From Felis catus (lineage: Eukaryota): 64,000 nucleotides of DNA. Each line of letters starts with the position of its first letter. The stretch's first letter is position 1. The notes under the pieces are model-generated. The model worked only from the letters and a program-made list of their open reading frames with translations. It had not been told where the DNA came from and made no database searches. Of this stretch, positions 34,527 to 57,809 are shown piece after piece. Made by a program: the position numbers and the translations under genes. Where the stretch lies: contig NC_058368.1 of NCBI RefSeq assembly GCF_018350175.1, positions 10,106,001 through 10,170,000 of the forward strand, in the 5' to 3' direction.

Positions 34527-34759
34527 GGGGCACCTGGATGGCTCAGTTGGTTGAGCATCAGACTTGGGCTCAGATGTTGATCTCCCAGTTCATGGGTTCA
34601 AGCCCCGTGTCGGGCGGGCTCTGTGCTGACAGCTCAGAGCCTGGAGCCTGCTTCGGATTCTGTGTCTCCCTCTCTCTCTGCCCCTCCCCCTGTCATGCTC
34701 TGTCTCTGTCTCTCTCTCAAAAATAAATAAATTAACAAAAAATTAAAAACTTAAAAAAA
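34527..34759 (+). mobile_element. Can-SINE
   Basis: TSD GAAAATTTGCARTT at 34513-34526 and 34760-34773. Confidence 0.93.
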
Positions 34760-54190: not shown

Positions 54191-55067
54191 TTTGGTTTTC
54201 TGTTCATACTTACCAGAGGGCAGAGGCAGATTTACTATGATGCTAATAAAACTTCTTTTAATTCTTTGGATTCTTTTTTTAAGTGAGTGTAGGCAAAACA
54301 TTAATCTCTAAGGTTCACAAAACCTACAAGGGAGACACACAAATCTGATTGCAAACTACATACAGAGATGGGGCTTATTAGCAGGTACTTGATTTAGGTG
54401 GTTAGGTGATAAGCTCTCTTTCTGTTGGGAAACCCCCAAATACCCATATTTATAGGTCAGTTTCTCCAAAGAGAGAAACCCTTGGCTGTTGGCCTTCTGA
54501 GAGCAGGATTGGGGAGGAAACTGGGATCTTCCTGCTTCCCATGCAACACTTACTGAACCCTTCTTTTTCCTGTTCATCTCACTACCCCACCTTCTACTGT
54601 GCCTCGTGTCCTGGAATCTCCTGAGCTTCTCTCATTCAGTTTTACACCTAATAAATTTCTGGTTAGGAAAGGATCACCAAATGACTGCATGAGGTTAAGA
54701 AGATTGTGCAGGAACTCAACCATGCTGTATACAAGCTTTCACCCAAGCTGCTTGTTTTCAGCCTGAGCCTCAGTACCTTTCTTACCCTGTTCCTGTTACA
54801 GAAGCCTATTGGGGGTCTACAATGTGGATTAGCTCACTGATTTGTTATTCCTTTCGGCAATCACTTAGTTTTAGCTTCCTCTACTTTGCTAATTCAGTTG
54901 CCACATCTGTATTTGGTCTCCAGCTTCTAAAAATATGGTAACCTCTAATCTGCTATCATTCTGGTAAAGTCTGGGGAGGGAGGAGTCAAGTGTGATATAT
55001 GATAATTTTTATGAATCTAAATTGGATCATATTATTCCATTGCTTTCCAATGGCTTTGCATTGTATT

Positions 55068-55452
55068 TTGTTTTGATTTTGTTTTTGAGAGAGAGAGAGG
55101 GCACAAGTGAGTGAGGGGCAGAGAGAGAGAGAGACAGGGAGAGAGAGAAAGAGAGAAACAGGACTCACCTGAAGTGGGGCTCATGTTCACGTGAAGTGGC
55201 GCTTGTGTTCACCCAAAGTGGGGCTCATGTTCACCCGAAGCAGGGCTGGAGCTCACGAGAAGTGGGGCATGAGTTCACTTGATGTGGGACTTGAACTCCC
55301 ATCCAAGTACTAACCAGGCCCGACCCTGCTTAGCTTCCGAGATCAGACGAGATCGGGTGCGTTCAGGGTGGTAGGGACTTGAACTCATGAACCGTGAGAT
55401 CATGACCTGCGCTGAAGTCAGATGCTTAACCCTCTGAGCCACCCAGGCTCCC
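55068..55452 (-). mobile_element. Can-SINE with internal 22-bp tandem array (SINEC_Fc3-like), hosting the 5S fragment
   Basis: Minus-strand head GGGAGCCTGGGTGGCTCAG, five 22-bp units at 55171-55280, (CT)n and A-rich tail. Degenerate TSD TGCATTGYAYT at 55057-55067 and 55453-55463. Sits in L2-like sequence. Confidence 0.85.
55296..55373 (-). pseudogene. 5S rRNA retropseudogene fragment (about nt 12-89 of 5S)
   Basis: Minus strand reads TACCACCCTGAACGCACCCGATCTCGTCTGATCTCGGAAGCTAAGCAGGGTCGGGCCTGGTTAGTACTTGGATGGGAG, which is 77/78 identical to the recalled mammalian 5S rRNA (one CpG-type change at 55358). Truncated at both ends and flanked by GGGACTTGAACTC direct repeats. Confidence 0.95.
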
Positions 55453-57809
55453 TGCATTGCACTTGGAATGAAATCCAAGTTTCAGTTCCTTCTCTTTGTT
55501 CACAAGGTCCTGCGAGACTGCCATAGCCCTTGCTTACCTCCTCACTGTTCCTCCTCCCTCCATCCCCTCGTTCATCAGGCTCCAGCCACATGGGCCTTTT
55601 TAAAATTCCTATAGGATACCGTTTCCCCCCACCCCCCAGCCTTCAACCAGTGCACAGGCTGTCCCCTTTGCCTGCATTGTTCTTCTCCCAGCTCTTTCTG
55701 TGATTTTACTGTGTCATTCTGTAGACTCCAGAATGTCCCCTTGCCTGTGAGACCTTTCCTTACTGTTTTAGCTGAAGAAGTGTGCCACCATATCATTTGT
55801 TGCCTTCTAGCACCTGGCATTTTGCAGTCGTTTGTTTACTGATTCTTGTTTTTTGTTGTTTTTGCTTTATTCTTTCTTCCACTATTCGGCAGGTGCCCCA
55901 AAGGCCTTTATTCACTGAGAATCTAGCACGGTCGGTATAGTCTAGTCTGGGTGTGGGAGGTGCTCTGTAAATTTGTGGAATGATGGAAAAAATATACGGG
56001 AAATACACTTTTTGAAATTAGATGAGTATAGAATCAAAAGACCTCCCTACTTCAGGTAAATATTAAGGGTGATGGGAAAAGATTTGAAATGTCAGCCTTC
56101 TTAAAAGATGTCTTCGAGCTTCTAAGCAAAGGCCTTTCTGCATGTACAAATTACCATCTCCCTATGTGTAGATAAATACCCAAGACCTGCCAAGACTCTC
56201 TCCTAAATCTCTTAGCTCCGTCTGTTCCTCTCCCTCCCCAAAGCCACGGCCGCCCGTGTCTCCCCCTTGGATGACCTCTATTCCAGCTCTCTTTTCCAGG
56301 TTTGTCGCTTCCGATCCATCGCCAGGACCATCACCATAGTTTCCAGATGTGCGAATTGATGTCACCTTCCAGCTGAAAACCTTTCAGTGACTCCCCAGTG
56401 TCCTCAGGGGACACTAAGCTAAATGCCTTAAATGCGAGGCTGTACAATCTGGTCCCTGCCTGCCACGCCAGCATGCTCCCTCACCAGCCCCCACACTCTC
56501 CCCGAGACCTTCTGCTTTCCTTCCTCCAGACCCACGGCGCCCCCGACGGCCTTGTGCCTTGCGCACACACTGCCCCCCTCCCGTGGGCCACCGGCCGCTC
56601 CCTTCTTGCAGCCTATGTCTGTCCATAAATGAAGTCCAAAGACAGGCTTCGTGTCTCTCCTGGGAGTCTTCTCTGATCCCCCACGTTTGGATTGCTGGCC
56701 TTCCCATATGTTTTTATAGATCTTATTCTTATCTTTTCCACATTATTTATCACCCAATATTGTCATTCTCTCTTTTTTGTTCTGTTTCTCTAGTATTTGA
56801 AGCTTCTAAAGCGCAGGGGCCATGTCTTATCTTTGTATCTTCATCATTGTATTAAGGCCCATGAGTGAGAAGCACGAAAAGGTGCTTGTTTTCACATTGA
56901 GGCCTGGGGAACTTGGCTTCGATGAATTAGAACAGCAGACAGAGACAGCAGAACTGGTTCTTGCTTGGCTGTAGATTATGCGCATGGTCCCAGTGGTTTT
57001 GAACGTGCTGTAGATGCACGTTTGACTGGGGACTTTCTGCAAGTGCCATGCTAATCTTAAATGGGCCAGTTTCTCTCCTTGGGCTATAGATACACTAGTG
57101 CGGCATCAACCGTTCTCAAGTGAAAAAGAAAGAGTGGGAGCTGAGCCCCTGAGGAGCAGGGATGGCTCCCCGCGAGGAGTCCAAGGCTTGGAGGTGTGGT
57201 TACCATTGGGTCACGTTAGCTCTGAGTCATGGTTATCCCATCAGGGCAAACTTCAGTTCCACTACGGGGACTTCAGGCATAAGTTGGGTCCCTTGGGATC
57301 AAGAACTTCTCTTCTTGATGATACTGAAGGAACTCATTAACGTGAAATTTTGTAAAGACAATAAAAGCGTGCGTTGAGAAGAACGAGGTCGATTACTGTG
57401 ATAACGGCTAAGGATCAATGAAGAGTAAGACTTAATCTTTATCTTCAAAGGAACGCAGAGTAAGTCTAGGCTCTAACTTTGTCTTTTCTGGGTCTTCACG
57501 TCCAATTGCTCCACTACGCTGCTTGATCCTGGTCTACACAGACCAGCCCCTCAAAACCTTTCACAACCTGGTTTCTAACTTACCTCTCCTGATTCACCCT
57601 CAGCTACTCCCTGCCCTGCATACCTCACACTCTTGCCAGCGAGATCATACTTAATGAACACAGTGCACAACTTTTGCTGCCTTGTTGACCCATCACCGAA
57701 GCACATCCTTCGCTGTGTCTGCCATTTAACTCTTGTCTTCCTTCCGTTCCCCTAACAGAGCTCATTATACCCTCTCTGGGCTTCTATAGCACCTGTTGAA
57801 GGCTCTGAG

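Follow-up and report, generated by a model that had tools for sequence, protein, structure and literature searches.

The 5S rRNA sequence inside an old Can-SINE-like element on the minus strand of the window (the whole stretch of DNA analysed, 64 kb in length) is an ordinary 5S retropseudogene: nested, tailless, single-copy and of a class already published. The locus was very probably built by two separate retroposition events, one that placed the Can-SINE-like element and a later one that set the tailless, doubly truncated 5S copy inside it. Read along the minus strand, the SINE runs from 55452 to 55057, the 13-mer of its B box stands at 55386..55374 and again at 55298..55286, and the 5S rRNA sequence lies between the two. 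The features of the locus are as follows (TSD, target-site duplication):

55453..55464, minus strand: upstream copy of the host SINE TSD (AAGTGCAATGCA), matching the copy at 55068-55057 at 10/12 positions
55374..55452, minus strand: tRNA-related, Can-SINE-like head of the host, with the A-box region at about 55442-55429 and the B box ending at 55374 (from alignments with SINE heads and paralogues)
55374..55386, minus strand: upstream 13-bp TSD of the 5S insertion, which is the SINE B box in its native context (exact, 13/13)
55296..55373, minus strand: 5S rRNA nt 12-89, a tailless retropseudogene truncated at both ends (77/78; RF00001)
55296..55298, minus strand: shared GAG, 5S nt 87-89 in the GAGA hairpin loop, putative priming site (from the sequence, the Rfam structure line and the survey of other copies)
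55286..55298, minus strand: downstream copy of the 13-bp TSD, which is the second B-box copy (exact, 13/13)
55165..55296, minus strand: 22-nt tandem array of about 5.6 units in the host SINE body, its first unit taking in the B-box segment (TRF period 22, score 106, 55165-55288 in TRF coordinates; repeat family D1)
55087..55161, minus strand: (CT)n-rich region of the host SINE (TRF periods 2, 10 and 22; sequence)
55069..55086, minus strand: A-rich tail of the host SINE, running into the downstream TSD copy (sequence)
55057..55068, minus strand: downstream copy of the host SINE TSD (AAATACAATGCA), identified against the upstream copy

An earlier note on this DNA had described a pair of 13-bp repeats around a 5S fragment that starts near nt 12, with GAG microhomology, no poly(A), no TTTT ahead of the tail, the SINE and the 5S fragment in one orientation, and the B box duplicated rather than destroyed. 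This anatomy stands in every part. Within the 64-kb window, the 13-mer GAGTTCAAGTCCC has exactly two copies, both on the minus strand: one at 55374-55386 and one at 55286-55298. They flank the insert and are identical at 13/13 positions; chance expectation for such a repeat was 0 in 100 shuffles. Rfam recognizes the insert as 5S rRNA (RF00001; 63.8 bits, E 6.7e-12) and, across the whole 64-kb window, reports nothing beyond this hit and one SINE head scoring as tRNA. Positions 55373..55296 correspond to 5S nt 12-89 and are 77/78 identical to the genome's own 5S gene. The sole mismatch, G27>A, falls at a CpG and is independently present in four other dispersed 5S copies; 5/6 CpGs are retained in the insert. 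The 5S part is internal, with nt 1-11 and nt 90-121 missing, and has the same orientation as the SINE. GAG at 55298-55296 serves both as 5S nt 87-89 and as the first three bases of the downstream repeat, which gives a microhomology of 3 nt at one junction and none at the other. The sequence has no A-run between the 5S end and the downstream repeat. On the sense strand, TTTT is absent from the SINE start at 55452 to its end at 55057, the first one standing at 54933. In the Rfam consensus structure, G87-A88-G89-A90 are the four positions of a hairpin loop (nt 85-92 read GGGAGACC).

The reference 5S gene for these comparisons (L003 1493-1613) comes from a tandem array on contig C22 of the assembly that holds the window (2.43 Gb, 71 contigs). 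The array, at C22:19633926-19667685 (L003-L020), contains 28 tandem full-length genes that score 114.6-115.8 bits and are spaced at about 1,245 bp. More diverged 5S copies lie near it, at C22:19741488-19750044, and others are found on the small contigs C24, C25 and C26 (83.6 bits).

Tailless retropseudogenes were first described for tRNAs (Schmitz et al. 2004, cited in PMC5322556), and the text of Noll et al. (2015, Genome Biol Evol 7:889, PMC5322556) gives 555 such copies of 5S rRNA for the human genome. According to the same text, copies of the class are truncated at single-stranded positions, carry TSDs of 8-35 nt and sit at targets complementary to the new 3' end of the RNA; the class is most abundant in Boreotheria, dog included (PMC5322556). 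The target sequence given there, TT/WAAAAWW (PMC5322556), is a consensus and no requirement. Pre-truncated RNAs were sought without success, which its authors took to favour internal priming over a pre-cut RNA (PMC5322556). For 5S rRNA, the text of a later preprint gives position 46 (loop C) and position 90 (loop D) as the truncation points (bioRxiv 10.1101/2025.02.02.635956). From the text of these two sources, 5S copies made by LINE-1 internal priming, with TSDs, without a tail and truncated at about nt 90, are an already published class (PMC5322556; 10.1101/2025.02.02.635956).

Comparison with other dispersed 5S copies in the same genome demonstrated that the copy in the window is a typical member of this class. 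We took 43 dispersed copies, namely the 39 non-self matches of a 5S-to-SINE junction query and four of the five 5S-half matches of a SINE-to-5S junction query, aligned each to the 5S gene, and searched the flanks for duplications. The sample is biased: its members are the top BLAST matches to nt 57-89 or 12-41 of 5S, which are well preserved, and they number 43 among some hundreds of candidates; within it, 38/43 copies end at nt 89-92, 2/43 at nt 42 and 3/43 at nt 95-107. Nearly all (39/43) start at nt 1-3, and the four 5'-truncated copies, which start at nt 20, 53, 54 or 57, also have TSDs. In 34/43 copies there is a TSD of 9 bp or more (median 15 bp, range 9-19) with its downstream repeat starting at or inside the 5S end, a position that leaves no room for a tail. 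The overlap between TSD and 5S end in these 34 copies is 3 nt in 12, 2 nt in 10, 4 nt in seven and 5 nt in one, and is absent in four; the overlaps of 2-5 nt (30/34) are mostly AG, GAG or GAGA. The TSD begins with GA in 13 copies and with AG in 12 (25/34 together), TT precedes it in 14/34, and the surveyed class sits mostly at sites of the type TT/RGAA (the slash marks the nick). None of the 43 copies has a SINE of the host type within 40 nt.

The window copy shows the same combination of an end at nt 89, a 3-nt GAG overlap, a 13-bp TSD and no tail, so there is nothing special about the locus in these respects. Its missing 5' end has parallels in the four 5'-truncated copies of the survey. Its missing tail, its GAG microhomology and its non-canonical target are all class-typical. 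The suggestion in the earlier note that this is a tail-less, microhomology-primed 5S retro-copy of LINE-1 type agrees both with the anatomy and with the published class. Its further suggestion, that the missing TT/AAAA site hints at another mechanism, does not hold for this genome, where TSDs starting with GA or AG (25/34) are the usual state; the missing site is no reason to invoke another mechanism for this 5S class. The same searches turned up a second dispersed class, of 5S copies that end at about nt 42-45 (L066, L068 and L024); two of these, L066 and L024, have direct repeats.

The SINE that holds the insert comes from an old subfamily with many copies. Over 79 nt its head can be aligned with the heads of 15 other SINEs in the window and, in addition, with eight paralogues of the same subfamily. 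When the array-bearing body was searched against the genome, the best 40 of 423 candidates were scored and had 73-88% identity. These paralogues are uninterrupted across the insertion site, where the 13-mer, or a sequence close to it, stands once (e.g., L073), and they mostly share the B-box letters of the host.

Judged by divergence, the insert is younger than the SINE that holds it. The host head differs from the majority of the eight paralogues in 8 of 82 alignment columns (about 10%), while the insert differs from the 5S gene at 1/78 positions (Fisher test on 8/79 for the host head against 1/78 for the insert, p 0.034). The host's own TSD matches at 10/12 positions and that of the insert at 13/13; both mismatches in the host TSD are transitions, consistent with an old insertion. 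With the TSD pairs pooled in, the contrast is 10/91 for the host against 1/91 for the insert (p 0.009). CpG retention, at 5/6 in the insert and 1/4 in the host, points in the same direction and is not significant alone (p 0.19), and the age contrast as a whole is one of small numbers. The claim of the earlier note that a younger fragment sits in a decayed host is thus correct as to the younger insert (1/78 against 8 of 82 columns). The sign of decay that might be read from the B box is not, since its letters, CAAGTC, are typical of the host's subfamily. An age estimate against the 15 mixed SINE heads of the window (11/79 differences, 1/8 CpGs kept) was likewise rejected, as it overstates decay where the B-box letters are subfamily-typical, and was replaced by the same-subfamily comparison given here.

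The body of the host subfamily consists of 5-8 tandem 22-nt units (L070-L080) that resemble the segment adjacent to the B box; the younger SINE copies in the window are without this array. SINE heads occur at about 20 places in the window (e.g., 10134, 34861, 43645 and 54032) and fall into two age groups that stand side by side, a young one with 6-8 of 8 CpGs kept and an older one with 0-4. The head at 34532-34616 (plus strand) scores 29.4 bits against an Rfam tRNA gathering threshold of 29, and is a repeat and no tRNA gene.

The sequence data suggest the following course of events. A Can-SINE-like element with a tRNA-type head, 22-nt array, (CT)n and A-rich tail would have inserted with its own 12-bp TSD. 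Much later, an endonuclease and reverse transcriptase of LINE-1 type would have nicked the strand complementary to the SINE, at a site that reads T/GAG on the SINE sense strand. The freed 3' end, ...CTC, could then pair inside a 5S rRNA, with G87-A88-G89 of its GAGA hairpin loop, so that reverse transcription would be primed at this loop and not at a poly(A) tail, and would be halted or cut short at nt 12. A second-strand cut 13 bp away, followed by fill-in, would duplicate 13 bp, here the SINE B box. The duplicated B box is therefore accidental, coming from the position of the 13-bp staggered cut.

The class as a whole supports this course. The prevalence of TSDs that start with GA or AG (25/34) is what would follow if the DNA end freed by the nick pairs with the GAGA loop, and the end points in the loop, the (A)GAG(A) targets, the LINE-1-length TSDs and the absence of tails are as predicted by target-primed reverse transcription with internal pairing. 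We infer internal priming of the copy from the published model together with the pattern in the survey, and LINE-1 as the enzyme from these and the TSD. Several features of the locus count against this course. The nick context CAT/GAGTTC is not A-rich and mismatches TT/WAAAAWW, as that consensus is given in the text of PMC5322556; the G+C-rich SINE body is an unusual target (0/43 surveyed copies lie near such a SINE); the overlap is just 3 nt; and 11 nt are truncated at the 5' end.

The junctions were searched in the 2.43-Gb assembly as a check on whether the locus is a single copy or a member of a family. The search skips very common words and scores the best candidates only, so that absence from its results is strong and not absolute evidence. 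With a 141-nt query over both junctions, the best 40 of 418 candidates were scored; only the locus itself spans the junctions, and the other 39 matches are to the 5S part alone. A 60-mer over the SINE-to-5S junction gave eight candidates, all scored (8/8), and is covered at its own locus only; the partial matches consist of two to the SINE half and five to the 5S half. The closest of these, L024, covers about nt 7-45 of 5S, has direct repeats of its own and is not related to the locus. A 60-mer over the 5S-to-SINE junction, for which the best 40 of 185 candidates were scored, is also covered at its own locus only, and the other scored matches end at nt 89 or a few bases beyond. The idea of a mobilised SINE/5S family is thereby rejected, both junctions being single-locus in the assembly among scored matches. 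The earlier note had proposed a junction search and held that a single, untranscribed copy would leave an ordinary nested pseudogene; run here with 60-mers, the search returned the locus alone among scored matches and, as to copy number, leads to that outcome. The insertion is a dead-end, single copy.

The 5S internal promoter consists of box A, an intermediate element and box C. An active or nascent chimeric SINE, in which a single Pol III transcript, driven by the A and B boxes, includes the 5S fragment and the unit is or may become a source of copies, is a very unlikely account of the locus. The A box and the first B-box copy do stand at their native spacing, the parts are co-oriented with no sense-strand TTTT between 55452 and 55057, and families with 5S-derived heads exist, as cited in the text of 10.1101/2025.02.02.635956. 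Against this, neither junction is found elsewhere among the scored matches, the host is old and about 10% off its subfamily majority, and the 5S part, without nt 1-11 and 90-121, is no 5S-type head. The idea in the earlier note of a chimeric SINE birth and a single Pol III unit loses its ground, both junctions being unique among the scored matches. Because the B box is duplicated and no terminator was introduced, the Pol III promoter of the old SINE could conceivably still fire and yield a tRNA-SINE/5S hybrid RNA, an unamplified potential founder of a composite SINE, though we hold this to be most doubtful. Such a putative RNA would combine the box A region of 5S with an A-rich 3' part, and that it would be a meaningful Pol III product is just as doubtful.

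Endonuclease-independent insertions usually lack TSDs and come with deletions. The capture of 5S RNA or cDNA into a break during repair, whether microhomology-mediated, polymerase-theta-like or by the LINE-1 reverse transcriptase at a pre-existing break, would fit a site that is not an A-rich LINE-1 endonuclease site and an insert that is truncated at both ends and has microhomology, of 3 nt, at one of its junctions only. It is nonetheless a very unlikely origin, as a clean 13-bp duplication without deletion is the mark of staggered nicking, and a whole class that lies mostly at TT/RGAA-type sites shares the nt 89 end and the GAG overlap. Less probable again is a chimera made in a single event, in which reverse transcriptase switched from SINE RNA to 5S rRNA and back, leaving SINE and 5S of the same age. 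LINE-1/5S rRNA chimeras are reported in the text of 10.1101/2025.02.02.635956, and a switch back 13 nt upstream could mimic the duplication. One event predicts parts of one age and one TSD, however, and the locus fails on both counts: the insert is at 1/78 against 8 of 82 columns for the host, and the inner TSD matches at 13/13 against 10/12 for the outer. This lower divergence of the insert excludes a single-event template-switch chimera as a likely origin. Two precise switches would also be needed, and the exact inner repeats bound the 5S sequence as they do in stand-alone copies. Misplacement of the 5S fragment by the assembly is an almost negligible prospect, since a misjoin would not make an exact 13-bp target duplication with class-typical end points; the assembly is, besides, highly contiguous, with 71 contigs for 2.43 Gb. 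We conclude that a tailless 5S copy retroposed into an older SINE is the best account of the locus.

The locus has little importance beyond annotation, being one more of a class that numbers hundreds per mammalian genome, and in standard repeat annotation it would appear as a SINE with a 5S pseudogene nested within. Transcription of the hybrid, were it to occur, would offer a rare view of the beginnings of composite SINEs; nothing here points that way. The surveyed copies are of more general use, because their uniformity in a carnivore (ends at nt 89-92, overlap with the GAGA loop, median TSD of 15 bp) lends independent support to the internal-priming model outside human. Elsewhere in the window, a weak U6 snRNA-like match at 56771-56872 (minus strand) scores 18.3 bits (E 0.92) against a gathering score of 44. 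With its conserved CATGGCCCCTGCGC core retained, it probably represents a retropseudogene of U6 that has decayed.

SINE3, AmnSINE1 and the fruit-bat 5S SINEs are multi-copy families in which the 5S part forms a promoter-bearing 5' head. Like these 5S-headed or composite SINEs, the locus juxtaposes 5S and tRNA-SINE sequence in one orientation; unlike them, it is one locus whose 5S part is internal and lacks both ends. In the text of PMC6230240, Can-SINEs have the A and B boxes in a tRNA-related head, together with (CT)n, an A-rich tail and a TSD of 8-15 bp, and the host itself resembles them. The host has the Pol III A and B boxes, the (CT)n, the A-rich tail and a TSD within that range, and its subfamily differs from this description by the 22-nt array after the B box (PMC6230240). 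Such an internal array is not described in the text of two Can-SINE papers.

With the LINE-1 small-RNA chimeras (U6/L1 and 5S/L1), as described in the text of 10.1101/2025.02.02.635956 (see also PMC6789731), the locus has in common a 5S sequence of the kind truncated at about nt 46/90 and a TSD in the span of 7-15 bp. Those chimeras are products of one event, with a single outer TSD and a LINE-1 3' end, whereas the 5S copy here lies within an older element, where a TSD of its own flanks it and no LINE-1 is attached.

The closest likeness is to the tailless retropseudogenes, as the text of PMC5322556 presents them: the window copy is of 5S origin, is truncated at an internal, single-stranded 3' end, has no tail, is flanked by a TSD, and at its 3' end meets a target that overlaps the RNA or is complementary to it. 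It departs from the consensus TT/WAAAAWW (PMC5322556) in that its site, CAT/GAGTTC, is not A-rich and shares with the consensus only the T ahead of the nick and the purine start. Lacking nt 1-11, it would also fail the filter for 'perfect case' copies of that text (at most 5 nt missing at the 5' end; PMC5322556), which is a screening filter and no biological criterion. Unlike the usual members of the class, it landed in a SINE B box and duplicated it. Its end matches the human truncation at 'position 90, loop D', and the two end classes in this genome, at nt 42 and at nt 89-92, match the human 5S truncation positions 46 and 90 given in the text of the preprint (10.1101/2025.02.02.635956).
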